Source: an uncultured Enterobacterales bacterium (GTDB lineage: Bacteria; Myxococcota_A; UBA796; UBA2385). Taken from it: a DNA stretch of 64,000 nt. The stretch is taken from contig CAYXGP010000001.1 of the NCBI GenBank assembly GCA_964464515.1, positions 69,984 through 133,983 of the forward strand, given 5' to 3'. The position numbers were made by a program, and so were the translations under genes. Shown here in pieces: positions 31,933-64,000 of this stretch. The notes below the pieces were generated by a model that saw nothing but the letters and a program-made list of their open reading frames with translations, did not search any database and was not told the DNA's origin. The number at the start of each line of letters is the position of its first letter. Within the stretch, counting starts at the first letter, position 1.

Positions 31933-31970
31933 GGGTGGCTCCTCGGGTTTCGGGTACCCCCTCTTCACCG

Positions 31971-33018: not shown

Positions 33019-33055
33019 GCGCGCCCCCGAGGTTCCAGTCGCGAGGATAGCGGAT

Positions 33056-38925: not shown

Positions 38926-39759
38926 TCAGGGCCCCATCTCAGAGAGACCTGGTTCAGCGAGCAGGATCTCCAGCCGATCCGGGAGGGCCCCCTCGAATCG
39001 AGCCTGGTACTCCGGCCGGAGCAGACGCGCGCGGACCGTCCACAGCGTGGGATCAGATGGATCGCGCATGACCTGCGGCCGCGCTCCGGGTGCCAGCCAG
39101 GGGCTGAGCAGGGCGGCCTCCTCCAGCGCCGCCCGGCAGCGCGCCGCGGGCGCCGGGGGCAGACGGAGCCGCACCACGAACTCGGTGAACTCCTCGAGAT
39201 CGATCCGCTGCGGCGTGCGGAGGAGCACGCGGTTCGGGATCCCGATGTGGTGGCCGTGCCGATCGACCAGCCACACCGCCCGCAGGCCGATCGTCTCGAT
39301 GCGCCCCTCGAACCCGTCCACCTGCAGCCACTGTCCCAGCGCCAGGCGCCGCTCGGTGGCCAGGAGCAGCCCGGCCACCAGATCGGCGATCGGCTCCCGC
39401 GCCGACCACCCCACGGCCACCGCGGTGGCGAGCATCACCCAGGGAAGCGCGGAGGCCAGCGACGGGGGGAGGAACGAGCCGATGGCGCCCAGAATCAGGA
39501 GCAAGGCCACCCCTCGCCCCACCATGGCCGCCCCGTGCAGCAATGCCGTGAGCCGACCGCCCGATCGCAGCTGACGCCGGACTGCCGCAGCCGCCTGCGA
39601 CAGCGCCCAGATGGCGATGCCCATCACGAGCAGCTCGACACCCTGCGCGCTGGAGGGGATCCACGGCATCCAGGCGTCGAGGCCGGGCCCGCCAGGCGTG
39701 GCCTGAGCAGCCTCTGCCGCCGCTGACGCGCTCCCCGATGCTCCGATCAGCGCAACCAT
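38926..39759 (-). CDS. Small-conductance mechanosensitive channel (MscS family)
   Basis: TM3 AVGWSAREPIADLVAG, GQWLQVDGFEGRIETIGLR, IPNRVL; ATG 39759 overlaps the upstream stop region. Confidence 0.85.
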   Translation of the reverse strand: MVALIGASGSASAAAEAAQATPGGPGLDAWMPWIPSSAQGVELLVMGIAIWALSQAAAAVRRQLRSGGRLTALLHGAAMVGRGVALLLILGAIGSFLPPSLASALPWVMLATAVAVGWSAREPIADLVAGLLLATERRLALGQWLQVDGFEGRIETIGLRAVWLVDRHGHHIGIPNRVLLRTPQRIDLEEFTEFVVRLRLPPAPAARCRAALEEAALLSPWLAPGARPQVMRDPSDPTLWTVRARLLRPEYQARFEGALPDRLEILLAEPGLSEMGP

Positions 39760-42700
39760 CCCCGCTCCGTGAGAGTCTGCACCACAGCCGTGAACAGGTG
39801 GGGGGCGATGCGCCAGATGTCGCCGTCGGGCTCCAGGATCCCCCAGTGCGCCAGCTTGCCCAGCCAGGCCCGCGCGGTGTCGAGATCGGTCCCGAACAGC
39901 GAGGCGTGGACATCCTCGCTCATCCACCCCTGCCCGACCGTCATCCGCAGGGTGAGCAGCGCGCGGGAAGGGAGTCGCTCGAGGCGATGCCGCGGCGGCT
40001 GCTGGAGCGGTCCGAGGGTCAGCACCCCCCGGCCCTCATCGACCACCTGAACCGACGCCAGCCAGAGCCGGAGCGCGTCGCGCATCACGCCGCCCGAGGC
40101 GCGGTACAGCGCAGAGAACCACGCCCGCTGCGCCGCCAACGCCTCCTCCTCTTCCTGCCAGCGGAGGACCGGCCAGCGCAGCTCGTCGCCCGGTCGAAAC
40201 TCCAGCTCGTAGCCGCTCAGCGCGTGACGACGAAGCAGCGCGCCCCGCAGGGCGGTCGGCCCCATGGGGGCGAGCTCCAGCAAGCTGGGGAAGGCGTCGA
40301 CCAGGGGGGCGAACGCGCTCGCCTGGCTCCAGACTGCTCGATCGACGCTGACGATCCACGCTCGCTCCGCCCCCTGGTCGAGCACCCCGCGCACGAACCG
40401 GCGCAGCGGACGCGCCCCGCCCGGACGGAGCTGAAACAGCCAGCGCAGCCCGTCCACCACGTTGATCAGGCCGGCGTCGCGGAGCCACTCCTCCACGGTC
40501 TCCTCATCGACAGGGGCGCGCGGTGCGCGGATGACCACCCCCTCCATGTCCTCGATGATCTCCCGAGCGATGCCGGAGGTGCCGGTGCCCGCGGGCCCCA
40601 CGAGGGCCAGGCAGCGCCGATGCCCCACGCGATCGGCCCCCAGGATGACCCTGCCCGCCTCCACCAGCTCCGAGTGCTGATTGAGGATCTCATCCAGCTC
40701 AGCGCTCTGGTGAGAGAACAGGCGCCGGTAGAGCACCGGGCAGTCCACGGCAGGAAGGGGCGCCAGCGCGGCGCGCAGCTCCGACTCCGGCGCCTCCGCG
40801 GTGGGGAGCCCCAGCCAATGGGCGAGCAGACGCAGGCGCTCCTCGCCCAGCGCCGCGCGAGAGACTCGGGCGACGCTCTGCCGCGTCCGCGCCACCACGT
40901 TGTTCAGCTCCGCGGCCTGCCGGGAGATGCGCTCTCGCAGCTCCACGTCGCGTGTGAGGAGCTGGAGGGTGACCCCTTCTCCGGCCAGCACCAGATCGCG
41001 CACCTGCGCCAGCTCGCCGCGCACCTGGGCAGCGATGGTGTCGCCGGACTCCTCACCCAACCCCAGCACGTCGGTGAGCATGCGCTGCAGGCGCGCATGG
41101 CTGCGCCCGATCGCCCCGCCGACCATCTCGTCGATCAGAGCGCGCGTCTCCGAGGAGAGCGGACTCTCGGCTCGGACATGCAGCTCGGCGTTGGCCAGAT
41201 CGAGGTTGAAGGAGGAGATCCTCTCAGCCTCCTCCAGCGCCGCGTCGATCTCGCCCACCCGCTCGGCGAGCGCTGAAGACAGCTCCAACAGCGACCGGCT
41301 GAGCGAGGTCTCGATCCGGGTGAGCAGGAGGCGCTGGAGCGGAAGCACCGCCACGGTGGCGGTGGTCAGGTGCTCCCAGGTGTGCGGGGACTCCAGCTCC
41401 CTTGAGGGGACCCGCACCTCGTGGCTGAGCGTATCCGCCAGGCCGAGGATCCCCTCGCGGACCGGCGCGATCACCGAGCCGCTGGAGGTGGCCTCGAGCA
41501 GCGACCCCGAAGAGCGGCGGGCCTGGTCGATCCGTCCGGCGAGCGGCGGGCGGCGAGCGTCGATGAAGGCGCTGAGCTCAGCGCTGCCGCAGCCTCCCTC
41601 CGCGAGCGCGGAGATCTCTTCCAACACAGCGGACAGACCGTTGATCACCGCGTCCAGCGGTACGACGAGATCAGACTGTAGACGCGCCGCGAGGCGACCG
41701 ATCTCGACATCGAGGACGGCGTCACAGCGACGCTCCAGGGCCGACAGCTCCAGCTCCAGCGCCAGCACCTGGTAGCACGCGCTCAGGGTCTCCCGGGCCC
41801 GGGGAAAACCATCGCACAGCAGCGAAAGGCCGCGGCTGCGATCGTCGAACACGTGTCCGAAGCGCCGCGCGCCGCGCGGCAGGTCCGGCGTGCCCTCGGC
41901 GATCAGATCTCCCTTGATCCGACTCATCGCCCCGCCGAGGAGCTCGACCAGGAGGTTGGAGATGGCCTCGGTGTCGGCCTGGAGGCGCGCCTGGGACTGC
42001 GCGATGCGGCTGTCGAACCCCCGGCTGAGCCGCCCCAGCTCTTCAGCCTGAGAGCCACCACCCGAGCCGAGGCTGTCGTACCGCTGCGAGATCTCCTGGA
42101 ACAGCTCCGTCACCTCCGCGGCCACGCGCAGCTCGCTGCCTGCGACCTCCGCGGCGAGAGCGGTGAGCTGCAGTGGCATGCGCCCGCTCAGATGATAGCG
42201 AGCCGTCAGGCGCACCCCCACCTCCCGCTCCCCCGGCCGCACCCGCCGCCACAAGCGAAACAGCGAGCGACGCCAGCGGCGAAGAGGCGGATCGTCCGCG
42301 CGGAACACCAGCGAGCGCTCCTCGACCGGCGCGGAGACCTGCTCGGGCTGGTCGTCGGCGAGCCGATCGAGGGCAGCGATCAGCACCAGCGGATTCCAGG
42401 TGCGTTCCTGCACATGCCGCTCACGCTGCAGGACGCGCTGCCGCCAGCAGTCCGCGAGCCGGGCGATGTGCTCGGCGGCCCTTCGCTGGAGCATCCGTCC
42501 CTGCCCCGGCGCGGTCGCCAGCTCCTCATGCAGGCGCAGGAAGTCCAGGCGCAGTCCGGCCAGCCACTCGTCGGCCTCTGCCTGCCGGCGCGCCAGCGGA
42601 CCGCTGCTGACCTGCTCGCAGATCTCCTGCAGCGCCTCCTCCTGCTGCCGCGCGAGTCGTGCCAGCTCCGGGGAGTTCGTCTGAAGCGGGGCCCCCCACC

Positions 42701-44132
42701 CGACGAACTGCTGACTCTCGACCTGCGGAGTGGGCTCTGCCGCGCTGACCTCCCCGATCTCCCCGTCGGCCGATGGGATCTCCCCCGCGCGGGAGAGCGA
42801 GAACTGGAGCAGCGCCGGGCCGATGATCTCGTTGATGGCCACGCCCGCGAGCACCAGGGTGCGCAGCGCGCCGCCGGTCTCCGGCCCGTAGATATCCGGG
42901 AGCTGCTCCGCCAGCGTGATCGACAGCCCCGCCTGCGAGATGAAGCCCAGCCATCCCAGCTTGCGGGTGTTCGGATCGGCACCCGCGAGCCGCGCGCCGA
43001 TCCCCACCCCGCCGTACAGCGCGATCATGCGGATGGCGACCAGCGCCAACGCGAACGGCGCCAGCGCCACGAGATCGTGCAGGTGGAGCTTCGCGCCGGC
43101 CAGGGTGAAGAACACCACGAACACCGGCATCGAGAGGCGCTCGACCTCGTGGATGAGGCGGTCTCCGTAGTCGGAGTAGTTGGAGGCGACGAAGCCCGCG
43201 GCGATGAAGATCAACGCGGTCTCTGCCTGCAGGTTCTCCGAGACGTACGAGACGGTGAAGATGACGCCCACGAGGAACAGGAGCACCTCCGCGCCGATGT
43301 ACTTGAGGTACAGGTGCAGCAGCAGGCCCAGGCCCGCGCCCGCCAGACCAGAGACAGCGATCATCACCAGCGAGTGGCCGAGCCCGTGGCCGCCCGAGGC
43401 GCCGACCACCATGTTGGTGACCGTGATCATCGCCGAGAACGCGATGACGACGATCACGTCCTTGATCACCGCCACCGAGATGATGTTGGTGGTCATCGGG
43501 CCGCGCGCGCGCGTGCTGACGATGATCGCGATGGTGGCCGCGGCGGAGGTCGCCATCGAGATCACCGCCACGATGCCGCCGAATGACAGCGCAGCGCCGG
43601 TGGACATCCCGCCCAGGCCCGGCATGCCCAGCGCCGGGATCACGCCGGAGATCAGGTAGAAGAAGCCCACCGTGCCCACGGTGAGCGTGATCATCTGGCC
43701 GGTGAGCACCCCCAGGATGGGGCGGATCGCCTTGCGGATCGTGCCCACGTCCAGCTCTCCGCCCGCCGTGAGGCAGATGAGCGGGAGCGCCAGGGTGTTC
43801 AGGAGATCGAGCTGTCCGATGGTCTCGTCGTTGAGGATGCCGTGGTCGAACGGCGCGGGGAGCACGCCGCCCAGCGCCTGCGCTGTGGATGGTCCCAGGG
43901 CCAGCCCGGCCAGCAGGTAGCCGGTGATGTGGGGCAGCCGGATGACCTCGGCGAGCTGACCGATGGTGTACGCCGCCAACACCACGAACCCGAAGGCCAG
44001 CAGCCCCCGGGGGTCGAACCCGTCGCCCATGACCGCGTAGTTGTGCAGCAGCAGCAGCGCCCCGAACAGGGCCACCACGATGAGTGACTTCTGGACGACA
44101 TCGACCGGGTGTCCGTGGCTGCTCCCTCCCAT
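39747..44132 (-). CDS. CPA2 cation:proton antiporter fused to a long helical region and a degenerate P-loop NTPase/winged helix
   Basis: LPHITGYLLAG...GP and SQAG antiporter motifs in the first ~420 aa; GPAGTGTS at 40575-40598; C-terminal wHTH-like segment. Confidence 0.8.
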   Translation of the reverse strand: MGGSSHGHPVDVVQKSLIVVALFGALLLLHNYAVMGDGFDPRGLLAFGFVVLAAYTIGQLAEVIRLPHITGYLLAGLALGPSTAQALGGVLPAPFDHGILNDETIGQLDLLNTLALPLICLTAGGELDVGTIRKAIRPILGVLTGQMITLTVGTVGFFYLISGVIPALGMPGLGGMSTGAALSFGGIVAVISMATSAAATIAIIVSTRARGPMTTNIISVAVIKDVIVVIAFSAMITVTNMVVGASGGHGLGHSLVMIAVSGLAGAGLGLLLHLYLKYIGAEVLLFLVGVIFTVSYVSENLQAETALIFIAAGFVASNYSDYGDRLIHEVERLSMPVFVVFFTLAGAKLHLHDLVALAPFALALVAIRMIALYGGVGIGARLAGADPNTRKLGWLGFISQAGLSITLAEQLPDIYGPETGGALRTLVLAGVAINEIIGPALLQFSLSRAGEIPSADGEIGEVSAAEPTPQVESQQFVGWGAPLQTNSPELARLARQQEEALQEICEQVSSGPLARRQAEADEWLAGLRLDFLRLHEELATAPGQGRMLQRRAAEHIARLADCWRQRVLQRERHVQERTWNPLVLIAALDRLADDQPEQVSAPVEERSLVFRADDPPLRRWRRSLFRLWRRVRPGEREVGVRLTARYHLSGRMPLQLTALAAEVAGSELRVAAEVTELFQEISQRYDSLGSGGGSQAEELGRLSRGFDSRIAQSQARLQADTEAISNLLVELLGGAMSRIKGDLIAEGTPDLPRGARRFGHVFDDRSRGLSLLCDGFPRARETLSACYQVLALELELSALERRCDAVLDVEIGRLAARLQSDLVVPLDAVINGLSAVLEEISALAEGGCGSAELSAFIDARRPPLAGRIDQARRSSGSLLEATSSGSVIAPVREGILGLADTLSHEVRVPSRELESPHTWEHLTTATVAVLPLQRLLLTRIETSLSRSLLELSSALAERVGEIDAALEEAERISSFNLDLANAELHVRAESPLSSETRALIDEMVGGAIGRSHARLQRMLTDVLGLGEESGDTIAAQVRGELAQVRDLVLAGEGVTLQLLTRDVELRERISRQAAELNNVVARTRQSVARVSRAALGEERLRLLAHWLGLPTAEAPESELRAALAPLPAVDCPVLYRRLFSHQSAELDEILNQHSELVEAGRVILGADRVGHRRCLALVGPAGTGTSGIAREIIEDMEGVVIRAPRAPVDEETVEEWLRDAGLINVVDGLRWLFQLRPGGARPLRRFVRGVLDQGAERAWIVSVDRAVWSQASAFAPLVDAFPSLLELAPMGPTALRGALLRRHALSGYELEFRPGDELRWPVLRWQEEEEALAAQRAWFSALYRASGGVMRDALRLWLASVQVVDEGRGVLTLGPLQQPPRHRLERLPSRALLTLRMTVGQGWMSEDVHASLFGTDLDTARAWLGKLAHWGILEPDGDIWRIAPHLFTAVVQTLTERGWLR

Positions 44133-45355
44133 CAGGCGCGCGCCTCGAGCTGGGGGACGTCGTGGCGCAGGTCACCGGCGTCGATCAGCAGCCCCTTGAG
44201 CACCCGCGGGGCGATCAGCTCGTAGAAGACCACCGAGGCGAGGATGGCTGTGTAGGCCAGATCGACCGCCGGCCCGGAGTACACCAGGCGGAACATCAGC
44301 GCGATCGCCAGCGCCACATGCCCCTGGGCCAGCAGACCCCGCACGAGGTCATCGCGGAGGCTCGTCCCCATGCTGGCGATCCAGCATCCCAGGGCCTTGC
44401 AGACGAACCGCAGGACGATGAAGCCCACGCTGAGCGCGATCGCCGGCAGGGCGGGGACGGGCGTCCACAGCACCCCCGCGAACACCAGCAAGATCAGCGA
44501 CGCGGGCTTCTGGGTGCCGGCGAGGGTGGAGTGGATGGCCTCACCATGGCGGCTGTGGACCAGCACGACCCCCAACAGGAGGTTCACCGTCAGCGCCGAG
44601 AGATCCAGAAAGAACGCGGCCCCCGAGGCGAACGAGATGATGCCCACCAGGGCCAGGAAGCGGCTGTTCTCGCTGTCGTCGTCGCCCAGGAACACCACGA
44701 ACAGCGCGCCGAGGGAGAGCCCGAGCCCCGCCGTGAGCAGCACCCACGTCGATGGATCCGGGGGGTTCTCCAGCGCGGCGTCGCCGTGATGGAACCGGCA
44801 CATCAGCACCCCGAAGGCGGCGATGGCGAGGATGTCGCCCAGGCGCGCGGTGCGTCGCAGGAGCGGCAGGAGGCGGGTCGCCACCTCGTGGTAGCGCGAC
44901 AGCAGCAGATCGACAGCAGAGGATGATCCCGCGGCGGCCGCGCAGCCCATCACCGCCGCGCTCAGCCAGGCCTCATCCGAGGAGATCTCCCCTACGAACG
45001 CCCCGGAGCGGAACACCGCGGCCGCCGCCGCCGCCACCCCGCAGCCGGTGATCGCGCTCTCCACGCCCGCGAGGCGCATCGTGCGGCCCGCCTCTGCCGA
45101 GGACGCTCGGCGACCCACCGGGAGCTCGACCTCCATGCCATACAGCAGACCGATCCACCCCGCGCCGAACGCGATGACCGGCGCCAGGGAGTCCAGATCG
45201 GTGAGCACATGCAGGTTCGGGCCCAGCAGCACCCCCAGCAGGATGTACTCCAGACCGGACGCAAACAAGAAGCGCCGCTGCAGGCGATCGACGACGAAGT
45301 GCGTGAGCAGGTAGGCCACCGCCACGAAGGCCAGCAGGATGAGCAGCACCCCCAT
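44132..45355 (-). CDS. CPA2-family cation:proton antiporter-like membrane protein
   Basis: About 12 TM segments, EYILLGVLLGP, LAQGHVA; TGATG overlap with the fusion gene. Confidence 0.8.
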   Translation of the reverse strand: MGVLLILLAFVAVAYLLTHFVVDRLQRRFLFASGLEYILLGVLLGPNLHVLTDLDSLAPVIAFGAGWIGLLYGMEVELPVGRRASSAEAGRTMRLAGVESAITGCGVAAAAAAVFRSGAFVGEISSDEAWLSAAVMGCAAAAGSSSAVDLLLSRYHEVATRLLPLLRRTARLGDILAIAAFGVLMCRFHHGDAALENPPDPSTWVLLTAGLGLSLGALFVVFLGDDDSENSRFLALVGIISFASGAAFFLDLSALTVNLLLGVVLVHSRHGEAIHSTLAGTQKPASLILLVFAGVLWTPVPALPAIALSVGFIVLRFVCKALGCWIASMGTSLRDDLVRGLLAQGHVALAIALMFRLVYSGPAVDLAYTAILASVVFYELIAPRVLKGLLIDAGDLRHDVPQLEARA

Positions 45356-48123: not shown

Positions 48124-50243
<2,120 letters not shown>

Positions 50244-50247
<4 letters not shown>

Positions 50248-51947
50248 CGCGCCTCCCGGGAGAGACGGTCGATGGCGTCGGCCAGCGGGCTGGGCTGCTG
50301 CGTCCCGGTCTCCAGATCCCGGAGCGCCACCTGGCCGGTCTGCCACTCTTCTGCGCCGAAGATCACGGCGAAACGCGCCCCCGCGTGGTTGGCTCGGCCG
50401 ACCTGGTGCCGGAGCGAGAGGGCGTCGCCCGAGTGGAGCTGCGGGAGGGTGCAGGAGGCCTGGACGCCGCGGGTCCGGAGCTGCGCGACGAACGTGAAGG
50501 CCGCGTGCTGGAGGTCCGGATGCTGGACCGCGACGTAGACCCCGCGGCGCGCTGCCGGTCGGGGAGGAGGCAGGGCCGCGGCGAGGCGCTCCACGCCGAA
50601 AGACATCCCCACGCCCGTGAGCAGATCGCCGATGTGCTCCAGCGGCGGCGGGGCGCGACCGGTCCGCAGGGCCCGCGTCTCCCGCGCCCGCTCGTACAGC
50701 CAGCGGTGGAGATCCTCGTAGCGCCCCCCGCCGCAGATGTCGGTGTGGGTGGCGGCGGTGTTCGGGGTGTGGATCTCGAAGGTCAGGCCCGTGTAGTAGC
50801 GGATCCCCCTACTGGCCGAGGCGGTGAGGAGGAGGGGGACCGGCGCCGCGTCGGGCAGCCCACCAAGCTCATCGCACAGCCAACGCAGGCGATCGCGGTG
50901 CGCGCGCGCTGCGTCTCCGGTGATGAGTGGATCGATCTGCGCGAAGAAGCGATCGGGCTCGGGATCGAGCGCCGCCAGCGTCAGCACCGTCCGACTCACG
51001 TCTTCCCAGCTTCCGCCCTGCGGCCAGCCGGGGCGATGGGTCTGGTTCCAGAGCATCCAGAGCGCCTCGTCGTACAGCTCCGGCAGCCGGGCGCGCCAGC
51101 GCGACAGGGGCACCTCAGTCGGCGAGAACAGCTCAGGCCAGCGCCGCTCCGCCTCTTCCCGGGACGCCCCGGTCAGGTGGGTGAGTCGACGCAGCAGCTC
51201 CGGGATCAGGCCGCGCATGTAGTTGGCGAGCTGGGCGTCGCTGCCGCGAACCCGCATCCGGACACGCGAGGAGATCACCAGGCCGTTGGCGACGGCATCG
51301 CGGGTCTTCCCGGTGAGGCCGAGGTCGGAGAGGATCTCGCGGAACAGCGCGTTGTGCCCGAGGTGCAGCCGCCAATCGGGCACGCCCACGGCCGTCATGC
51401 AGTCTCGGGCCACGCACAGCACCTCCAGATCCGCGTAGGCGCTGGAGCTGCCCACCAGCTCGATCCCGATCTGCCGGAACTCGCGAAATCGCAGCGGCGA
51501 GGGGTGGACGTCCCGGAACACCTGCCCCGCGTACGCCAGTCGATGCGGCAGATCCGGCGGGCGGCCGTGGTCGAGCAGGCGCGTGACGAACGCCCGGGCC
51601 AGGGGAGCGGTGAAGTCGGGGCGGAGGGCGACGTCGTGGGTGGGCTCGACAGGACCCGCGCCCGGCACACCGCCGGGGAACTCCGCAGCGTCCGAGACCC
51701 GCGCCATCACGAGCTGGTGGTAGAGCGACTCGCCGATGCGATCGGGGTGGTACAGCTCCCGGTACTCGATGGTGGGCACGCCGGTGGGCTCGAAGCCATA
51801 CCGCTCGAACACCTCCATCAGCCGCGCTTCGATCCATCGATGGCGGCGACTGGTGGCGCGGGTCTGATCGGGGACGCCTGCGGGGCGCGTGTAGTCCAGC
51901 GCGGTCAGCTCAGCGGGGGCCACATCGGGCTGTGAAGGTGGATGCAC
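50244..51947 (-). CDS. Divergent HisZ/HisRS paralog retaining a C-terminal anticodon-binding domain
   Basis: LRPDFTAPLAR, RLAYAGQVFR...REFRQIGIELVG, LGH, RGIRYYTG, GGGRYE, SFGVERL, C-terminal HQVGRANHAGARFAVIFGAEE...VALRDL; GTG 51947 after GGAGG. Confidence 0.8.
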
Positions 51948-52005
51948 CGATGGACCTCCGGGCGAGTCGCGCCGGGAGCAGCTAACACGGCCCCCCTCCG
52001 CGAAC

Positions 52006-52965
52006 TCAGGAAGAGACCCACAGCGACAGCCCCCGATGATCCGAGCCGGGGATCGCGAAGTGCGCGACGCCGCCCGCGCTCGCGGCGCCGACCAGGACAT
52101 GATCCAGCACGAAGAACGGGGCCTTCGGCCACCCCCCGCCGACCGGCCAGCTCACCGCCCGCAGCCCCCAGCGCAGCAGGGGATCAGACAGCCCCTGCGT
52201 CACGAGTCTGCGCCACGCAGCGCCGAGGGGCACCCCGTTCAGATCGCCGGCGACGACCACACCGTCTCCGGCGCGGCACGGCCCCCAGTCCCGGACCATG
52301 CGCCCGCCAGCGATCGCGTCGGCGATCCGGGCGACGTAGGGGCCGAGCCCGGTGGGGTCGTAGGGAGCCGGCGGCGGCCCGTGGATGCCGAGCAGGCAGA
52401 GACCAGACGACAGGCGGACCAGCGCGAGCGGCATCGCCATCGTCTGAGAGCCGAACGTCGGCGTGACCGCGGCCGCGCAGCCCGGATCGCGGCAGAAGAC
52501 CGCGGTGCCGTGCGAGACCCGCGGCATCTCCTCGTCGTAGTTGTCGGCGACGCGGTGGTAGCCCGGCAGGGACTCAGCCCGCCGCTCGATGGTGACGACC
52601 ACCGCGGCGCCGGTCGCCGCCAGGGCCGCGGCCATCGCGGGGGTGGTCGCGGCGTCCGCGAAGGAGTTGACGTTGGCGACGACCACGTGGGTGCCCACGG
52701 CGGGCCCCTCCGGGGGCGGGAGCCAGCCGCCAGCGACCACGCCGACCACCCCACACAGCAGGGGAGCGACGACAGCGCGGCGACGCAGCCCGACCGCCAG
52801 GGCCCACAGCGGCCACACGGCGAGCAGCCAACGCGGCGCCATCGCCAGCAGGGCCGCCGCGGCCTGACCGGTGACGTGTTGAGTCGGACAGAGGAGCGAC
52901 AGGACCAGACAGAGCGCGCTCAGGAGGGCGGGCCCCAGGCTCCAGAGCAGGGTCTGCGCAGTCAT
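52006..52965 (-). CDS. Membrane-anchored endonuclease/exonuclease/phosphatase (EEP, YafD-like)
   Basis: Three N-terminal TMs; ANV, AGDLN, LDHVL, GSDHR; TGATG overlap with the kinase stop. Confidence 0.88.
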   Translation of the reverse strand: MTAQTLLWSLGPALLSALCLVLSLLCPTQHVTGQAAAALLAMAPRWLLAVWPLWALAVGLRRRAVVAPLLCGVVGVVAGGWLPPPEGPAVGTHVVVANVNSFADAATTPAMAAALAATGAAVVVTIERRAESLPGYHRVADNYDEEMPRVSHGTAVFCRDPGCAAAVTPTFGSQTMAMPLALVRLSSGLCLLGIHGPPPAPYDPTGLGPYVARIADAIAGGRMVRDWGPCRAGDGVVVAGDLNGVPLGAAWRRLVTQGLSDPLLRWGLRAVSWPVGGGWPKAPFFVLDHVLVGAASAGGVAHFAIPGSDHRGLSLWVSS

Positions 52966-55277
52966 CACCTGTGCAGCATGGTGTCGCGGTCGCCGACCAC
53001 TACATAGGTCCAACCCAACGCCTCCATACGGGTATAGAACACGAGCGCGGGCTCATCTCTGTGCGACACCTCGTCGAAGCCCGAGGCGCCCTCTCGCACC
53101 GCTCTGGCTACCGACTCGATTGGGAAGGGAGGCAGCTCCAGCACGTCGGTGCCCGTCGCGGTCTGGGCCTGCTCTCCCGAGCGCACCACGACCCGAGCTT
53201 GTTCATCGAGCAGGTAGGTCTCCCACACCCCGGGGACCGTCGGGAGGTCGAGAAGCTGCTCGATCACGAACTCAAACGTGAACTCGACGCCCGCCACGCC
53301 GCGAAAGGCGCCCTCGTCTCCGTACAGCGACATGGCGCAGGGGAGAATCAGCCCCTGGCCGAGGGCATCCAGGTAGGGGCTCCCCCACTGGGGGCCTTCT
53401 TGATGGGCCGCCAGCTGGTACCACGGCCGGGTCCGGGGATCGTACCCGGCGGGATAGCCGCCCTTGCCCGGGTAGCTGTTGTGTATCCCCTCCTCGAGGG
53501 CCACATACGACCAGACCAGCGGCACGCCCTCGTCCATGATCAGGTCTCTCGCCTCATCCCGGGTCAGATGGCTGGCCCCGGGCCCCCTGCTCGACAGCAT
53601 CATCTGCTTGAACTGATGACGCAAGGGCGCCAGCTGCAGCAAGCGGGTGCGGATCGTCGCCCCGTCGTCCAGGGGAGTCTCCAGAGAAACCCCGGGAGCC
53701 AGCTTGAACACGGTCCAGTCCAGGCTCACGTTTCTGCGGTAGCGGGCGGACGACGTCACGCCTGGAGGTGAGCTGGCGGGATCTGAGAAGTCCGCCGCCA
53801 GGTAGAACGGCTGGGCCCCTGTTTCCTGTCTGTGGGGCTCTTGCCTGAGGGCCTGCACCGCTGCGGCCGCCAGCCCCTGGAGCAAGCCCTCGTAGATCAA
53901 GAAGTGGGCGTCGATGTGGTGGGCCTGCGTAGAGACGGAGGTGAGCAGGCTGCCCAACGTGTCTGCTCGCACGCGGGCGGTCTCCTGGCCGTGCGTGTAG
54001 GTGACCAGCGAGCCGGTGACCGTCAGGAACAGAACACCCAACATGACCAGCATGATCACGAGGGTGGTCTCGTAGTGGGATCGGACCCAGCGGGCGGCGC
54101 TCTGGAGCGGGGTGTCCGGGGCCGCGATCACCGCCTCTCCGCCGAGGAACCGCCGGATGTCCTCGGCGAAGGCCTCGACGGTGGGGTAGCGGTCTTCGGG
54201 GTCGATCATGGTGGCCTTGTCGATGATGGCCCGGAGCTCCCACGGGATCGTCACGCCAGAGACATAGTGTTCGATTGGGTTTCGGACGCCCTCCTGCGCG
54301 CTCGTGATCAGCGCGTCGTCCTTGCCTGGCACCGCTCGCGTGAGCGTGACCAGCTCGAAGAGCACCAGCCCGAGGCCGTAGAGATCGCTCCTGGGATCAA
54401 GGCTGGCGGGATCGCCCAGGGCCTGCTCAGGCGACATATGGGAGAACGTGCCGACGATAGCGCCGCTTCGGGCCTCTTCGCTGGGAAGCGCAGACTCGCT
54501 GCTGGCGAGATCCAGGCCGCCGTCCGGCAGAGAGTCCCGAGCGACGCTGCGCGCGACGCCCCAATCCATGAGGTACACCTCATTGTAGGGGCCGATCATG
54601 ATGTTGGAGGGCTTGAGATCCCGATGGATGATGCCCTTCCCGTGGGCATAGGCCAGGGCATCACAGATCTTGAGGAAGTGCTCGAGTCGAGTGGCGAGTC
54701 TGTGCTCCTCCGGCAGGGGCTGTGCCTGATCACGGAGCTTTCGGCTCTCGAAGATGTACCGCTTGAGCGTGCGGCCCTGGATGAGCTTCATGGTGTAGGA
54801 GAGGCTGCCCCCGGTCTCGAACATCTGGTAGACAGGGACAATGTTGGGGTGCTCGAGCTGGGCCGTTATCTGAACCTCTCGAAAGAAACGCAGCTTGGCG
54901 TCAGAGACGCTGATCGCCGCGGGCAAGATGCGCTTGAGAGCGACCGTACGGCGAAGATCATGCTCGCGGACTGCGAAGATCTCCCCCTCCCCCCCCTTGC
55001 CGATCGGCCCCAGCAGATCGAGCTTGCCGTCGATGTGCGGCATCCCGTCGTCGGCGTCCTCGACCTCCAGGCACGCGACCGGCAGGTCGGAGACCCCGGC
55101 TTCCGAGCCCGACTGCAGCGACTGGTGGGTCTCGGCGTCGATGTGATCGCGGTTCAGCAGCCAGTACAGAAAGCGATGGATGTTCTCCGAGCCCGTGTCC
55201 TCTTTGAACGTCCCGTACAACGCTCGAAGCCTAGGGGCGGGGATGGGGAGCACCTTCTGGAGCTCGGCAAAGTCCAT
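52965..55277 (-). CDS. Hanks-type Ser/Thr kinase with single TM and C-terminal dCache sensor domain
   Basis: GKGGEG, VALK, HRDLKPSN, DWG, MSPEQ; TM about 54000-54066; YDPRTRPWY...WGSPY...GVAGVE. Confidence 0.92.
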   Translation of the reverse strand: MDFAELQKVLPIPAPRLRALYGTFKEDTGSENIHRFLYWLLNRDHIDAETHQSLQSGSEAGVSDLPVACLEVEDADDGMPHIDGKLDLLGPIGKGGEGEIFAVREHDLRRTVALKRILPAAISVSDAKLRFFREVQITAQLEHPNIVPVYQMFETGGSLSYTMKLIQGRTLKRYIFESRKLRDQAQPLPEEHRLATRLEHFLKICDALAYAHGKGIIHRDLKPSNIMIGPYNEVYLMDWGVARSVARDSLPDGGLDLASSESALPSEEARSGAIVGTFSHMSPEQALGDPASLDPRSDLYGLGLVLFELVTLTRAVPGKDDALITSAQEGVRNPIEHYVSGVTIPWELRAIIDKATMIDPEDRYPTVEAFAEDIRRFLGGEAVIAAPDTPLQSAARWVRSHYETTLVIMLVMLGVLFLTVTGSLVTYTHGQETARVRADTLGSLLTSVSTQAHHIDAHFLIYEGLLQGLAAAAVQALRQEPHRQETGAQPFYLAADFSDPASSPPGVTSSARYRRNVSLDWTVFKLAPGVSLETPLDDGATIRTRLLQLAPLRHQFKQMMLSSRGPGASHLTRDEARDLIMDEGVPLVWSYVALEEGIHNSYPGKGGYPAGYDPRTRPWYQLAAHQEGPQWGSPYLDALGQGLILPCAMSLYGDEGAFRGVAGVEFTFEFVIEQLLDLPTVPGVWETYLLDEQARVVVRSGEQAQTATGTDVLELPPFPIESVARAVREGASGFDEVSHRDEPALVFYTRMEALGWTYVVVGDRDTMLHR

Positions 55278-57800: not shown

Positions 57801-59428
57801 CCGTCTCCCACCCCTGCGTGGTCACCATCGATCATCGCTCCAAGCCCCGCGTGCTGTTCAGCGGTGATCAGCTCGTGGAGGTCGATCTCCCCGTGGGCAC
57901 CCGGGTGATCTACCCCAAGCCGCCCATGGAGCCGCTGCCCAACCCGGCCGCAGCGGTGCGCTACGCGCTCAGCCACCCGCTGGACAGCGAGCCGCTCCAC
58001 GCCAAGCTGCGCCCCGGCATGAAGGTGACGATCGCCATCGACGATCTGAGCATGCCGCTGCCGCCCATGCGCAGCCCGGACTGCCGGCAGCTCGTGCTGG
58101 AGCCGGTCATCGCGATGCTCGACGACTACGGCGTAGAAGACATCGAGCTGATCATCGCCACGGCCTTCCACCGGCCGATGTCGGAGGCCGAGATCCGCCA
58201 CATCGTCGGCGGGCGGACCTTCGAGCGCTTCTGGCCCGACCGCCTGTACAACCACGACGCCGAGCGGCCCGGAGGGCTCAAGTACCTGGGCACCACCGAG
58301 GACGGAATCGAGGTGGAGATCAACCGGCGCGCCGCCGAGAGCGATCTCGTCATCTATGTGAACCTGACGTTCGTGCCGATGAACGGCGGCCACAAGTCCC
58401 TGGGCACCGGCCTGGTGGGCTACCGCACGCTGCGCCACCACCACAACCCGCAGACCATCCGCGAGTGCGGATCGTACATGGAGCCGAAGCGGTCTGCGCT
58501 GTCGGCCAAGATGGATCGGGTGGGTGAGCTGATCGAGTCCAAGGTCGAGGTCTTCCACATCGAGACGACGGTGAACAACCGGATGTTCGCGGGGCCGCTG
58601 GAGTTCCTGTCCCGCAACGAGGACGATCTGACCCACGCCGAGGAGCGCGCGCTGAAGGCGCTGGTCCGCAGCCTGAAGCTGCTGCCCCAGCCGGCCCGCC
58701 ACGCCATCTTCACCCGCGTGCCCGCGCCCTACGAGATGATCGCGGTGTACGCCGGGGGCTGCGAGGCGGTGCACGCGGCCATCCTGGAGGTGGTCCACCG
58801 GCAGCTCTGCGTGCCCGTCGAGGGGCAGGCCGACATCGTCGTGTTCCCCATCCCCTACATCAGCCCCTACAACGTGGGCGCCCACCTGAACCCGCTGCTG
58901 GTCAGCGTGATGGCCGAGGGGTACCTGTTCAACCTCCACCGGGGCGCGCCGCTGCTCCGCGAGGGCGGCACGATCATCCTGCTGCACCCGTGCTCCGACA
59001 AGTTCGATCGGGATCAGCACCCCGCCTACGTGGAGTTCTTCCATCGGCTGCTGCCGCAGACCCGCGACGCGATGGAGCTGCACAAGCGGTTCGAGCGTGA
59101 CTTCGCAGCAAACCCCGCGTACATCCAGCTCTACCGGACGGGCAAGGCCTACCACCCCGCCCACCCCTTCTACATGTGGTACTGGGGCGAGAACGGCCGC
59201 CGCTACCGCAGCCGGGTGATCGTCGTCGGCGCCGACAACGAGTACGTGCCAGGCATCCTGGGCTACGAGACCGCGCGCACCATGGACGAGGCCCTGCGCA
59301 TGGCGCGGGAGACCGCCCCGCCCGACCCGGACATCTCGGTGTTCCGGATCTGTCCCGTGCTGATGGCCGACGTCACCATTCCGTCCGACACTGCGGCCGA
59401 GGCCCAGATAGTGGGCGAAGCAAAGTGA
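57797..59428 (+). CDS. Lactate racemase N-terminal (DUF2088/LarA-like) domain protein
   Basis: ALSHPL, IAIDD, ATAFHR, GGHKS; ATGA and GTGA overlaps on both sides. Confidence 0.8.
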   Translation: MTVSHPCVVTIDHRSKPRVLFSGDQLVEVDLPVGTRVIYPKPPMEPLPNPAAAVRYALSHPLDSEPLHAKLRPGMKVTIAIDDLSMPLPPMRSPDCRQLVLEPVIAMLDDYGVEDIELIIATAFHRPMSEAEIRHIVGGRTFERFWPDRLYNHDAERPGGLKYLGTTEDGIEVEINRRAAESDLVIYVNLTFVPMNGGHKSLGTGLVGYRTLRHHHNPQTIRECGSYMEPKRSALSAKMDRVGELIESKVEVFHIETTVNNRMFAGPLEFLSRNEDDLTHAEERALKALVRSLKLLPQPARHAIFTRVPAPYEMIAVYAGGCEAVHAAILEVVHRQLCVPVEGQADIVVFPIPYISPYNVGAHLNPLLVSVMAEGYLFNLHRGAPLLREGGTIILLHPCSDKFDRDQHPAYVEFFHRLLPQTRDAMELHKRFERDFAANPAYIQLYRTGKAYHPAHPFYMWYWGENGRRYRSRVIVVGADNEYVPGILGYETARTMDEALRMARETAPPDPDISVFRICPVLMADVTIPSDTAAEAQIVGEAK

Positions 59429-62400
59429 CCATGCTCGACGTCGCGGCTCAGCTCTCCGGACGGCAGCTCCTCGTGATGGGGGGCACCGGCTTCCTGGGCA
59501 AGGTCTGGGTGTCCATGCTGCTGGCGCGGTTCCCCGACGTCGCTCACCTGCACATGGTGGTCCGCGAGCGACGAGGGCCCGACGGCGCGCTGCGTCAGTC
59601 CAGCGAGGAGCGATTCTGGGGCGAGATCGTGCCCTCGCCGGTCTTCGACCCGATCCGCGAGCAGCACGGCGACGGCTTCGAGGCGTTCATCCGGCAGAAG
59701 ATCACCCCCATCCCCGGCGACGTCACCCGACCCTTCGCCGGCGTGCCGGACGAGGTCCGCGATCGGCTGCGGGGCAAGCTGCACGCGCTGGTCAACGCCT
59801 CGGGCGTGGTGGACTTCAACCCGCCGCTCGATCACGCGCTGGAGGTCAACGCCTTCGGCATGCAGAACCTCGTGGCCCTCGTTCGCGACCTGACGCCGGA
59901 GGGCGCCCCCGCGCTGTCCACCCTGCACACCTCCACCTGCTATGTCGCCGGCGATCGCACCGGGCAGGTCGATGAGGTGAACCCGCTGGATCACCCGTTC
60001 CCCCGCTGCGGAGAGCTGGAGCGCTCACACTGGGACCCCGCCCGGGAGATCTCCGAGTGCGTTGATCTGATCGACAACGTGCGCCACCGCTCCGCCGACG
60101 CCTTTCGGCAGTCCGCCTTTCTGGACGAGGCCTGCCGCAACCTCACCGACAAGAGCGAGCCGACCCGAGGCACCGCGCTCGCAGACGAGCTGGCGCGGGT
60201 CAAGCGCAAGTACGAAGAGAATCAGCTCACAGAGGGCGGCACCGAGCGCGCGAAGTACTGGGGCTGGCACAACACCTACACGTACACCAAGTCGATCGGC
60301 GAGCAGATCCTGCTGACGAGTGACGTGCCGTGCTGCATCGTCCGCCCCGCGGTGATCGAGTCGGCCCTGGTCTTCCCCAGCCGCGGCTGGAACGAGGGGA
60401 TCAACACCTCGGCGCCGCTGATCTACATGTGCCTTCAGGGGCCCGTCTGGTACCCATCGCGCGAAGACACCGTGCTGGATGTGATCGCCGTAGACCATGT
60501 CGCGATCGGAATGTTGCTGGCGCTGGCCGAGCTGCTGGAGGGCGCCCCCCAGGTGATCTACCAGATGGGCACCTCGGACACCGCGCCGCTGGGCATCATG
60601 CGCCTGATCGAGCTCACCGGTCTGTACAAGCGCCGCAGCCTGCGCCGCAACCCCAGGGGCAACCCGCTGGTGTCGTGGGTGCAGGCCCGCGCCGAGCCGG
60701 TCCCGCTGTCGACCGAGGACTACTACGCGCGGGGACCGCGCCACAAGGCCGCCCAGACGCGGAAACTCTCAGGGCTGCTCGGGCGCTTCAAGAAGGGACC
60801 GCTGGCCCCGTTCGCGGCCCCCCTTCAGAAGGGCATCGACTCGGTGACGAAGGGCCTGGAGGTGCATGCGTACATCTCCGACCAGTTCGTGCCGTTCATG
60901 GCGACCCACAACTACCGGTTCTCCTGCGCGCACACCCGCGCGGCGTTCGGCCGCCTGAGCGACGCCGAGAAAGAGCTGCTGCCCTGGGCTCCCGAGGAGA
61001 TGGACTGGTTCGACTACCTGATGGAGATCCACTACCCGGGCATCGAGCGCAACGTCACGCCGCTGATCGAAGCGAAGATGAAGCGCGACTCCAAGCCGCT
61101 GCGCCGCTACGACCACCTGATCGACCTGCTCGACGAGGCCGCCGATCGGCACGACCTCGCCCCCGCGCTCCAGCTGATGGAGGAGGACGGGCTGAGCCGG
61201 GTGAGCTACCGCGACCTGCGCGGCCGGGCCATCGCCGTGGCGACGCGCCTGCACAGCGTGGGCCTGAAGAAGGGCGATCGCGTGCTGCTGGCCGGCAACA
61301 ACCACCCCGACTGGTCGATCGCCTACTTCGGGATCCTCCGGGCGGGCTGCGTCGCGGTGCCCATGGACGCCGGGATCGAGCCGCCGAAGGCCGCCGGCAT
61401 CGCCGCGGCGTCGGGCGCCAGCCTCGCCATCCTCGACCAGACCGCGCGGGACCACCTCGGTACCGCGGTGACGATGCCCATCGCCGATCTGCACGAGGTC
61501 TCCGCGATGGGCGCCGTTGGGATCCGCCCCGAGCCGAGCACCGCCCCGGACGACCTCGCGAGCGTCCTGTTCACGTCAGGCACCACCGGCGATCCCAAGG
61601 GGGTGATGCTCACCCACGGAAACTTCACAGCGCTGCTGTCCAGCCTGGGCAAGCTGTTCCCGCTGGAGGAGAGCGATCGCCTGCTGAGCGTGCTGCCGCT
61701 GCACCACGCCTTTGAATTCACCTGCGGCCTGCTGCTGCCGCTGTCGATGGGCGCGCGTATCCTGTACCCGGGCGAGATCACCGGGGAGCGGCTGGCGGAG
61801 GGGCTCCAGAAGGGACGCATCACCTGCATGGTGGGCGTGCCTGCGCTGTGGCAGCTCTTGGAGCGGCGCATCCGCAGCCAGGTCGATCAGCGCGGGCGCA
61901 TCTTCTCGACGGGCTTCGACGGCGCGCTCGAGGCCAACCGGAAGATCGGCAGGGTCACCGGCCTCGACCTGGGCCGCCTGATGTTCGGCAGCATCCACTC
62001 GCGCTTCGGCGGTAACATCCGCATGCTCATCTCGGGCGGCGCCGCGCTCCCGAAGGACACCCAGAAGCTCTTCTCCGGCCTGGGGCTGCACCTGTCGGAG
62101 GGCTACGGGCTCACCGAGGCCGCTCCCGTGCTGACGGTGGCGATGCCCGGTCCGGGCAGCTCCGCGGGCCACGTGGGCAAGCCCATCCCCGGCGTGAAGA
62201 TCCGCATCCGCGCCCCTGACGAGGCGGGCATCGGCGAGGTGGAGGCCTCCGGCGACAACGTGATGGCAGGCTACTTCGGCAACCGCGAGGCCACCGCGTC
62301 GGTGCTCAGCGAGGACGGCTGGCTGCGCACCGGCGATCTGGGACGCCTGGACCACAAGGGTCGGCTGGTCCTGGTGGGGCGCGCCAAGGAGGTGGTGGTC

Positions 62401-64000
62401 ACGTCTGCTGGGGAGAACATCTACCTCGACGACACCGAGTCCTCCCTGGGCCGCATCGCGAACGTCAAGGAGTACGCGCTGGTCGGGCTCGCCGATCCGC
62501 GCGGCGGCGAGCGGTTGGGCCTTCTGGCCGTGCTCGATGACGAAGACGATCGGCCCACGGACGAGCGCCACCGCGCCGCCCGCGCGTCCATCGACGCCGC
62601 GGTCAGCAGACTCTCGGCGGTGCAGCGCCCCGCGGTGATTCACCTGGTCGACGCCGATCTTCCCCGCACCCGCACCCGTAAGGTCCAGCGCAAGGCCGTC
62701 GCAGAGACGCTGGAGCGCATCACCCGTGCGGCTCCCCGGCGGCGAGGCGGCGGAGTCGACGCCAACGTGGCGCACGCCATCGCGGCGGTGGCTGGTATCT
62801 CTGCCGATGATCTCCACCCCGGCGCCCAGCTGCGCGCCGAGCACGGCTTCGACTCGCTGATGTTCGTCGAGCTGGCCGCGGCGCTGGCCGCCGCCGCCGG
62901 CGCGCCCCCCGACGCCGAGGCGCGGGAGCGCTGTGAGACGGTGGCCGACGTCGTGGCGCTGGTGGGCGCGCCCACGCCGGTGGTCACCGAGGAGCGCGAG
63001 CGCGGCCCCGGACCGGTCGATATCCCGCAGTTCCTGGCCGACCCCATGAAGCAGGCGATGGGCGTCGTCCAGGACACCTTCAACGGCCCGCTGCTCGGCA
63101 CCCGCGTGCTCGGCCGCGCCAACATCCCGCAGAACCGCAACGTCATCGTCGTCAGCAACCACACGTCTCATCTGGACATGGGGCTGATCAAGCACGCGCT
63201 CGGCGAGTACGGCCAGCGGATCGTGGCGCTCGCGGCCAAGGACTACTTCTTCGAGGGCAACCGCTGGAAGGTCGCGTACTTCCGCTACCTCACCAACGTC
63301 GAGCCCATCGATCGCCGAGCGGGCTTCCGCACCAGCTACAACCAGGCCCGCGAGATCATCGAGAGCGGCGCCATCGTGCTGCTGTTCCCCGAAGGCACCC
63401 GCCAGACCTCCGGGATGCTCGCCGAGTTCAAGCCGATGATCGGCAAGCTGGCGCTGGAGACCGCCACCGACATCCTGCCGCTGCACATCGACGGGGCCTA
63501 CGCGTCGATGCCCAAGGGCGCGCTGCTGCCGAAGAAGCGCGGCATCACCATGCGCATCGGCCCGCCGCTGCGCCACACCGACATGATCCGGCACACGGAC
63601 GGCATGAAGGCGTCCGACGCTGCGCGCAGGGTCGCTCAGCTCACCCGCGCCGCGGTAGAGCGTCTCGGGAACGGCCAGGTGCTCGACCTGCAGCACGAGG
63701 CGCCGCCCAAAGCCGACGCGCCCCGCGCCATGACCCCCTCCGAGCTGGCCGAGCGGGCCTTCAAGAGCCTCTCCAGCAAGTACGATCCCGCGCGGATCGA
63801 GCGCCCGGTGTGCTGGTACTTCTCCCTGGGGAAGAAGGACGGCCCGCGGTGGACGGTCTCGGTGGACAAGGAGCGCTGCCTCGTCAAGCCAGGCCGGCCT
63901 GAGGGCGCGGCGGACTGCGTGGTGAAGACCTCAGAGGATCTGTTCACGCGGCTGGTGCGGGACCGGTATGTGCCCACTCCCGCGGAGTTCATGTCCGGCG
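59425..64000 (+). CDS. elbD: Multifunctional ether-lipid synthase ElbD-like: fatty acyl reductase, adenylation domain, ACP, acyltransferase, SCP2-like; 3-prime partial
   Basis: My translation from GTG 59425: GGTGFLG, YTYTK, FTSGTTGDPKG (61570 region), EGYGLTE, RTGDLG, GFDSL (Ser at 62854), NHTSHLD, FPEGTR, terminal AEFMSG; frame consistent at 61561, 62821, 63121 and 63781; absent from the ORF track. Confidence 0.88.
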   Translation, partial: MTMLDVAAQLSGRQLLVMGGTGFLGKVWVSMLLARFPDVAHLHMVVRERRGPDGALRQSSEERFWGEIVPSPVFDPIREQHGDGFEAFIRQKITPIPGDVTRPFAGVPDEVRDRLRGKLHALVNASGVVDFNPPLDHALEVNAFGMQNLVALVRDLTPEGAPALSTLHTSTCYVAGDRTGQVDEVNPLDHPFPRCGELERSHWDPAREISECVDLIDNVRHRSADAFRQSAFLDEACRNLTDKSEPTRGTALADELARVKRKYEENQLTEGGTERAKYWGWHNTYTYTKSIGEQILLTSDVPCCIVRPAVIESALVFPSRGWNEGINTSAPLIYMCLQGPVWYPSREDTVLDVIAVDHVAIGMLLALAELLEGAPQVIYQMGTSDTAPLGIMRLIELTGLYKRRSLRRNPRGNPLVSWVQARAEPVPLSTEDYYARGPRHKAAQTRKLSGLLGRFKKGPLAPFAAPLQKGIDSVTKGLEVHAYISDQFVPFMATHNYRFSCAHTRAAFGRLSDAEKELLPWAPEEMDWFDYLMEIHYPGIERNVTPLIEAKMKRDSKPLRRYDHLIDLLDEAADRHDLAPALQLMEEDGLSRVSYRDLRGRAIAVATRLHSVGLKKGDRVLLAGNNHPDWSIAYFGILRAGCVAVPMDAGIEPPKAAGIAAASGASLAILDQTARDHLGTAVTMPIADLHEVSAMGAVGIRPEPSTAPDDLASVLFTSGTTGDPKGVMLTHGNFTALLSSLGKLFPLEESDRLLSVLPLHHAFEFTCGLLLPLSMGARILYPGEITGERLAEGLQKGRITCMVGVPALWQLLERRIRSQVDQRGRIFSTGFDGALEANRKIGRVTGLDLGRLMFGSIHSRFGGNIRMLISGGAALPKDTQKLFSGLGLHLSEGYGLTEAAPVLTVAMPGPGSSAGHVGKPIPGVKIRIRAPDEAGIGEVEASGDNVMAGYFGNREATASVLSEDGWLRTGDLGRLDHKGRLVLVGRAKEVVVTSAGENIYLDDTESSLGRIANVKEYALVGLADPRGGERLGLLAVLDDEDDRPTDERHRAARASIDAAVSRLSAVQRPAVIHLVDADLPRTRTRKVQRKAVAETLERITRAAPRRRGGGVDANVAHAIAAVAGISADDLHPGAQLRAEHGFDSLMFVELAAALAAAAGAPPDAEARERCETVADVVALVGAPTPVVTEERERGPGPVDIPQFLADPMKQAMGVVQDTFNGPLLGTRVLGRANIPQNRNVIVVSNHTSHLDMGLIKHALGEYGQRIVALAAKDYFFEGNRWKVAYFRYLTNVEPIDRRAGFRTSYNQAREIIESGAIVLLFPEGTRQTSGMLAEFKPMIGKLALETATDILPLHIDGAYASMPKGALLPKKRGITMRIGPPLRHTDMIRHTDGMKASDAARRVAQLTRAAVERLGNGQVLDLQHEAPPKADAPRAMTPSELAERAFKSLSSKYDPARIERPVCWYFSLGKKDGPRWTVSVDKERCLVKPGRPEGAADCVVKTSEDLFTRLVRDRYVPTPAEFMSG

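Follow-up and report, generated by a model that had tools for sequence, protein, structure and literature searches.

The window analysed here, a stretch of 64,000 nucleotides of contig CAYXGP010000001.1 which originates from marine metagenomes and has a G+C content of approximately 70%, carries on its minus strand a gene resembling that of histidyl-tRNA synthetase (HisRS; positions 50244-51947), followed directly by a gene for an extended histidine ammonia-lyase (HAL; positions 48124-50247, minus strand). The HisRS-like gene is predicted to encode a protein of 567 amino acids, as given in a preliminary description of this DNA. Its probable start is the GTG at position 51947, and a Shine-Dalgarno-like GGAGG could be read from the sequence at 51955-51959 (minus strand) with a spacer of 7 nt to this codon; public gene calls instead use an alternative GTG at 51923, which gives a protein of 559 amino acids. 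The frame is open up to an ATG at 52100 (minus-strand open reading frame 50244-52100), and a G+C content of 0.86 at third codon positions gives it the codon usage of a genuine coding sequence. The GTG at 51947 lies 59 nt beyond the stop of an upstream gene of the Exo_endo_phos family, while at its other end the HisRS-like gene shares an ATGA (50244-50247, minus strand) with the lyase gene, stop codon and start codon overlapping there, and a GGGAGG is positioned 4 nt upstream of this start codon. Scanning for promoters and terminators yielded no informative signal, and neither Rfam families (leader, T-box) nor tRNA genes were found when the window was searched. The sequencing runs listed comprised only three, all of DNA from marine metagenomes (the sequence being present in two), and no RNA runs were found.

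The homology and fold of the HisRS-like protein were established with Pfam, which identified tRNA-synt_His (1.5e-37) and HGTP_anticodon (PF03129; 29.8 bits, the cut-off being 21), and with an AlphaFold2 model (predicted local distance difference test score (pLDDT) 80, predicted template modelling score 0.71). When the model was used as a Foldseek query the top matches were full-length HisRS structures, with target-normalised template modelling (TM) scores of up to 0.70. The anticodon-binding (HGTP) domain (50268-50546, minus strand) is intact and forms a folded alpha/beta unit in the model.

The downstream gene is predicted to encode a HAL of 707 amino acids in which the Ala-Ser-Gly methylidene-imidazolone (MIO) triad and the catalytic and substrate residues are intact (Y53, H83, N195, Q277, Y280, R283, F329 and E414 in the numbering of the Pseudomonas putida enzyme). 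It scored 556.2 bits against the TIGR01225 cut-off of 539.15 and also passed NF006871, and its core fold matched HAL structures with a TM score of 0.92 and a root mean square deviation of 2.3 Å. Compared to HutH, which has about 510 amino acids, it contains three inserts of approximately 22, 130 and 26 amino acids (in total approximately 180), the longest of which was modelled with high confidence as four long helices (pLDDT 89).

The same gene pair was found wherever it could be looked for among the close relatives of the HisRS-like protein, which form a small family described below. At all 12 distinct family loci with enough downstream sequence (the window, L001/L017, L002/L003/L096, L004/L005/L097, L006/L007, L008/L016, L009, L013, L014, L015, L099 and L176) an extended HAL of 680-750 amino acids lies directly downstream of the HisRS-like gene, mostly with a 4-bp overlap, and since all other neighbours differ between lineages it is this pair that constitutes the conserved unit. 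For other HisRS and HisZ relatives 151 loci were retrieved, and not one of them has a HAL gene within its flanks; no hutU, hutI or hutG was seen among the neighbours scanned in the window. The coupling to HAL, which the preliminary description had missed, is the decisive context for the gene. A keyword search of PubMed Central open-access articles and bioRxiv returned no paper on a HisRS paralogue paired with HAL or with a linked histidine aminomutase, nor any description of an association between extended HAL and a HisRS-type gene.

The family is small. Only approximately 20 close relatives (33-46% identity, 439-627 amino acids) were recovered from 5.8 billion proteins before a sharp drop in score to ordinary HisRS, and when 1.84 billion cluster representatives were searched with a profile, approximately 24 members reached at least 370 bits, followed by a gap to 268 and 252 bits and then by the continuum of ordinary HisRS. 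Five of 185,579 species-representative genomes carry the family, all of them marine metagenome-assembled genomes (MAGs); their labels point to Myxococcota or Deltaproteobacteria, apart from one labelled only as 'uncultured proteobacterium' and one with the implausible label 'Enterobacterales'. All members found derive from marine Myxococcota-type MAGs or from unassigned metagenome contigs. In a neighbour-joining tree of 143 sequences (303 catalytic-core columns, 60 bootstraps) the family formed a clade in 59 of 60 bootstraps and HisZ did so in 55 of 60. On this sequence comparison it is well supported that the family is a clade of its own outside canonical HisRS and does not fall inside canonical HisS clades, in agreement with the earlier suggestion that the protein is no standard HisS. 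A deep grouping of the family with HisZ was seen in the midpoint-rooted tree but is weakly supported, being recovered in only approximately 15-27 of 60 bootstraps.

Curated models gave the same picture. The window protein scored 201.9 bits against the hisS equivalog TIGR00442, for which the cut-off is 286.75, and all other family members tested were likewise below it (114-198 bits). Against the HisZ model TIGR00443 it scored 165 bits (cut-off 271.65), and it was far below the cut-offs of all of the NF0089xx HisZ models. Three members (P0015, P0020 and P0246) scored higher with hisZ than with hisS, yet they also remained under the hisZ cut-off, and one family member is labelled 'hypothetical protein' by NCBI. 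By curated cut-offs the HisRS-like gene is thus neither hisS nor hisZ.

Alignment of the motifs (positions in E. coli HisRS numbering) allowed the differences to be located. The motif strings quoted in the preliminary description were all confirmed in the sequence, the protein containing LRPDFTAP, RLAYAGQVFR, LGH, FRDVHPSPLRFREF, RGIRYY, GGGRY and GVERL. On the minus strand of the window, LRPDFT (E. coli positions 80-85; 51609-51626) carries Asp for E83 and retains T85, and is preceded by a family-specific insert of low model confidence (residues 83-105, approximately). Motif 2 and its loop (FRDVHPSPLRFREFRQ; 51471-51518) retain R113, R121, R123 and Q127, with E115 replaced by Val, R116 by His and Q118 by Ser. 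An enlarged, all-helical insertion domain (residues 199-364; 50856-51353) follows, in which family members share a mean pairwise identity of 0.28, and then the HisA motif RGIRYY (50793-50810), with the catalytic Arg and both Tyr residues kept and Arg at the Asp position (residue 383, codon 50799-50801, as noted earlier), and the HisB motif GGGRY (50718-50732). Between HisB and motif 3 lies the family-defining insert of approximately 21 amino acids (LHRWLYERARETRALRTGR...; 50628-50714), which includes a predicted helix at residues 412-429, and motif 3 itself (GVGMSFGVERL; 50583-50615) keeps R311. The motif-3 Arg and the full anticodon domain had both been described as retained, and this holds.

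The two lengths that had been estimated, about 180 amino acids for the segment from LGH to RGxxYY and about 20 for the insert before motif 3, were also borne out by counting. From LGH to the HisA Arg there are 182 amino acids, compared with 93-114 in HisZ and in the E. coli, archaeal and other HisRS proteins sampled, and with 130-144 in a single long type of HisRS. The stretch between GGGRY and motif 3 has 37, compared with 15-17 in every aligned HisRS or HisZ from outside the family, an excess of 21. As the features of the window protein recur in approximately 35 homologues of 33-46% identity, they are not due to chance.

Nine charged residues are reported to be conserved in all HisRS structures (PMC8558854), and all nine are kept in the window protein, in which D13, E47, E/D83, D141, E270 and R287 could be mapped to the charged-residue set and R113, R121, Q127, E131, R259, Y263, Y264, GGGRY and R311 are all present. 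Across the family (counts over 35 members, with some motif positions scored in 20) conservation was found to be uneven. The HisA Arg, the Tyr-Tyr pair and HisB have a role in histidine binding (PMC11363354), and the residues of the histidine pocket are almost invariant: T85, Q127, E131 and Y263 in 34 of 35 members each, Y264 and the HisB Gly-Gly-Arg in all 35, and Y288 and an acid at position 83 in 33. Among residues of ATP binding and catalysis, R259 was retained in 33 members, R113 in 32, R311 in 30, R121 in 27 and E115 in none. At least one Arg that is invariant in class II synthetases is lost in 8 of 35 members, so that approximately 77% retain all of them. R116 and Q118 belong to the motif-2 loop by which ATP and the G-1 end of tRNA-His are read (PMC11363354); both residues are replaced in all 20 members scored, and R123, which the window protein keeps, is replaced in 27 of 35.

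The anticodon domain is less constrained than the core (mean identity within the family of 0.29 versus 0.51-0.54). It is absent from P0015 and P0254 and degenerate in several other members, and in P0015 the paralogue ends directly past the catalytic domain, its stop overlapping the start of HAL. Conversely, approximately 35 positions are invariant among members that are only 33-46% identical, and these include the whole histidine pocket and the family-specific motifs WLYxRAxxT and ARLxxxxxFP. A kept pocket combined with eroded catalytic residues would be the pattern expected of a protein that senses histidine and does not charge tRNA, and HisZ shows the same asymmetry. The proposal that the histidine pocket is altered in the window protein was not upheld, given that T85, Q127, E131, Y263, Y264 and GGGRY belong to the most conserved positions of the family. 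Nor can the change of Asp to Arg in RGLDYY be regarded as a change of the pocket: of the 20 members scored at this site, P0014 and the window protein alone have Arg, most members having Ala, and canonical HisRS proteins vary at this position too (Ala, Ser or Glu). Loss of the motif-2 acid was considered as proof of inactivity and likewise rejected, as three proteins well above the hisS cut-off (P0099, P0086 and P0068; 376-421 bits) are also without it, with loops such as YRYGAPGRG.

Of the known HisRS derivatives, HisZ shares several traits with the family. Both are HisRS-derived paralogues encoded beside an enzyme of histidine metabolism, R113, R259, R311 and the histidine pocket are retained in both while the motif-2 acid is lacking, and the anticodon domain, which HisZ lacks, has been lost in some family members. 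Two HisZ proteins that pass TIGR00443 (P0061 and P0033) keep the same arginines and histidine pocket without the motif-2 acid, and some HisZ have Arg at this position, as do 13 family members. Since bona fide HisZ proteins keep these 'catalytic' residues too, their retention does not imply synthetase activity. The earlier view of the core as HisZ-like was correct in part: the strand LAYAGQVFR is identical in the window protein, P0061 and P0033 and the motif-2 acid is missing, whereas LRPDFT was rejected as a HisZ marker, Asp at this position being normal in HisRS of the archaeal/eukaryal type. The window protein differs from HisZ in its full anticodon domain and in its conserved partner, the catabolic HAL in place of HisG or a his operon (no his biosynthesis genes were seen among the neighbours scanned), and in the family the insertion domain is larger and there are two inserts which are absent from HisZ.

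With canonical HisS (TIGR00442) the window protein shares the full three-domain fold, motifs 1-3, HisA and HisB, but it has a remodelled motif-2 loop, GGGRY and motif 3 are separated by 37 amino acids as opposed to 16, and in related genomes the gene is a faster-evolving extra copy beside a real hisS. In the eukaryotic kinase Gcn2 the HisRS-like domain has been repurposed as a sensor, having lost the HisA Arg and both Tyr residues, and binds neither histidine nor ATP (PMC11363354). Like the window protein it derives from HisRS, combines a catalytic-like with an anticodon-binding domain and has a diverged motif 2. Unlike the Gcn2 domain, which has a degenerate HisA, no histidine/ATP pocket and a kinase fusion, the window protein is free-standing and keeps HisA and HisB, the HisA Arg and Tyr-Tyr pair are near-invariant in the family, and the partner is a lyase.

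The relation of the paralogue to the housekeeping gene could be seen at three Myxococcota-type loci, in which the gene order is hisS, paralogue, HAL (L006/L007, L008 and L009; L006:6412-11868, L008:6598-11847, L009:6455-11422). The upstream HisRS proteins of L006, L008 and L009 scored 365-388 bits on TIGR00442, above the cut-off, and as a real hisS adjoins it the paralogue is a second copy in these genomes at least; no second HisRS gene was found in the window, which covers only 64 kb. Between L006 and L009 identity is 59.9% for hisS, 56.6% for HAL and 38.3% for the paralogue, which on this comparison of sequences is the least constrained of the three. The occurrence of hisS-HAL in a Candidatus Lernaella genome (see below) and of hisS-paralogue-HAL at these three loci suggests that the paralogue arose in an ancestral hisS-HAL operon.

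Taken together, the analysis favours, tentatively and with a probability which we put at roughly 40%, a HisRS-derived paralogue that has left the housekeeping role and serves as a HisZ-like, histidine-sensing (possibly also tRNA-sensing) partner of the extended HAL. The two proteins would be made together from a single, translationally coupled message; the paralogue would bind L-histidine in the conserved HisRS pocket, and in members with an anticodon domain, including the window protein, binding of tRNA-His may be added. Having presumably lost aminoacylation, it would contact the lyase, such that histidine breakdown is set by the sufficiency of histidine (or of charged tRNA), as HisZ serves HisG. 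The binding-only role suggested in the preliminary description is plausible. A more specific form of this reading, which we regard as unlikely, is that HisZ and the Gcn2 domain would be joined by the family as a third class of sensors derived from HisRS, namely a free-standing pseudo-synthetase that binds histidine and, by way of its anticodon domain, tRNA-His and is docked on the enlarged HAL. Histidine would then be degraded only once the supply for translation is secure, a bacterial counterpart to the logic of Gcn2 in which a catabolic enzyme is the direct target.

Several observations weigh against a sensory partner of HAL. The window protein could still activate histidine or charge tRNA, because the nine charged residues, R121, R311 and the anticodon domain are kept, and the motif-2 acid is also missing from some proteins that pass hisS. 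No fusion of the paralogue to HAL was seen among the top matches listed, and all data come from uncultured metagenome assemblies. Three loci from outside the family at which an extended HAL occurs were sampled: at two (L094 and L095) there is no HisRS-type neighbour, and at the third (L093, Candidatus Lernaella) an ordinary hisS, which passes TIGR00442, lies directly upstream of the extended HAL with a gap of 2 bp (L093:5484-9076). Given these three lyases, the HAL inserts are not specific to the paralogue, and co-expression alone might explain the linkage.

The main alternative is an active auxiliary HisRS, co-expressed with the lyase so that additional or higher-affinity capacity keeps tRNA-His charged during histidine breakdown. 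The window protein, with its complete set of charged residues, R121, R311, HisA, HisB, its intact anticodon domain and a predicted fold that is that of a full-length HisRS, would be compatible with such an activity, as would the approximately 77% of members that keep all invariant arginines; and a real hisS in the same place upstream of the extended HAL in Candidatus Lernaella suggests that HisRS-HAL co-expression is itself selected. Against this, the protein fails the hisS cut-off, E115, R116 and Q118 are replaced family-wide (R123 in 27 of 35, although not in the window protein), an invariant Arg is lost in 8 of 35 members, the anticodon domain is lost or eroded in several, and in three genomes a real hisS is already in the same operon, compared with which the paralogue evolves far faster. 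A second synthetase is a possibility that we take seriously but consider rather improbable.

The paralogue could alternatively be a histidine-type adenylating ligase, activating histidine, urocanate or a histidine derivative for an acceptor other than tRNA-His. Other aminoacyl-tRNA synthetase paralogues act in this way, as in amino acid:carrier-protein ligases, PoxA and AsnA. Most members retain the histidine pocket together with the phosphate-binding arginines, the motif-2 loop, which reads the tRNA acceptor end, is remodelled, a conserved new helix lies between HisB and motif 3, adjacent in sequence to active-site motifs, and urocanate is the product of the partner enzyme. However, the neighbours of the pair vary by lineage and include no conserved gene for an acceptor, a carrier protein or tailoring; invariant arginines are missing in some members; and the retained amino-group ligands (E/D83, T85 and Q127) argue for histidine itself as the ligand, so that we judge a ligase to be quite improbable. 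A functionless, decaying hisS duplicate carried along in the operon, to which the fast evolution, the eroded anticodon domain and the sporadic loss of catalytic residues might point, is scarcely credible for a gene with an open frame, preserved start-stop coupling and approximately 35 invariant positions at 33-46% identity, which indicate purifying selection.

The extended HAL belongs to a family in its own right that is much larger than that of the paralogue, with proteins of approximately 670-755 amino acids in more than 120 clusters (P0122-P0240), an intact active site and three conserved inserts, among them the four-helix one of approximately 130 amino acids. Named members include MAGs of Planctomycetes/Planctomycetota, Thermoanaerobaculia, Candidatus Lernaella and Candidatus Alcyoniella, those linked to the paralogue being of Myxococcota type. 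Since the same inserts occur in Planctomycetota HALs without a HisRS-like neighbour, the idea that they form a dedicated docking site for the paralogue is not supported. At a further locus (L177:1929-3655) a second type of HisRS-like gene (P0257) is joined by a 4-bp overlap to a HAL of which the N-terminus is 50% identical to the HAL of the window. Proteins of this type (P0257 and P0031) have an enlarged insertion domain, keep E115 and have no insert before motif 3, and scored 265 and 231 bits with hisS, below the cut-off. With the real hisS at L093 and this second type at L177, the linkage of HisRS-type genes to HAL is broader than the paralogue family.

Upstream of the HisRS-like gene, the Exo_endo_phos-family gene (52006-52965, minus strand), which is not conserved in related loci, is preceded head to tail by a gene for a Ser/Thr kinase of 770 amino acids with a dCache sensor domain (52006-55277 for both, minus strand). 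In this organism the kinase, Exo_endo_phos, HisRS-like and HAL genes may constitute an operon of four genes, an arrangement that related loci do not conserve. Elsewhere in the window, a large multidomain protein encoded at 59101-63999 (plus strand), which runs past the window end, has NAD_binding_4 reductase, AMP-binding, PP-binding and acyltransferase domains, a set which suggests a fatty-acyl-activating or lipid-building enzyme. A protein of 1,475 amino acids (39747-44171, minus strand) has an N-terminal Na/H-exchanger domain followed by a long remainder with no assigned domain, and in another of 995 amino acids (30199-33186, minus strand) a central Rieske 2Fe-2S domain is the sole one recognised.

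Synthetase paralogues turned regulators, such as HisZ and Gcn2's HisRS-like domain, are textbook cases of enzyme repurposing, and to our knowledge only a few regulator-type paralogues of aminoacyl-tRNA synthetases have been described. If the paralogue is indeed a sensory partner of HAL, the HisRS scaffold would have been recruited independently for histidine catabolism, on the opposite side of metabolism from biosynthesis, and the pair would offer a simple two-protein system in which to study how a synthetase fold becomes a ligand sensor. Should it prove to be a second HisRS with synthetase activity, this would be a more ordinary finding, yet still a clear case of metabolic co-expression that protects translation. 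The enlarged HAL family, for its part, is recurrently linked to HisRS-type genes, be it a real hisS, the second HisRS-like type or the paralogue family of these marine bacteria.

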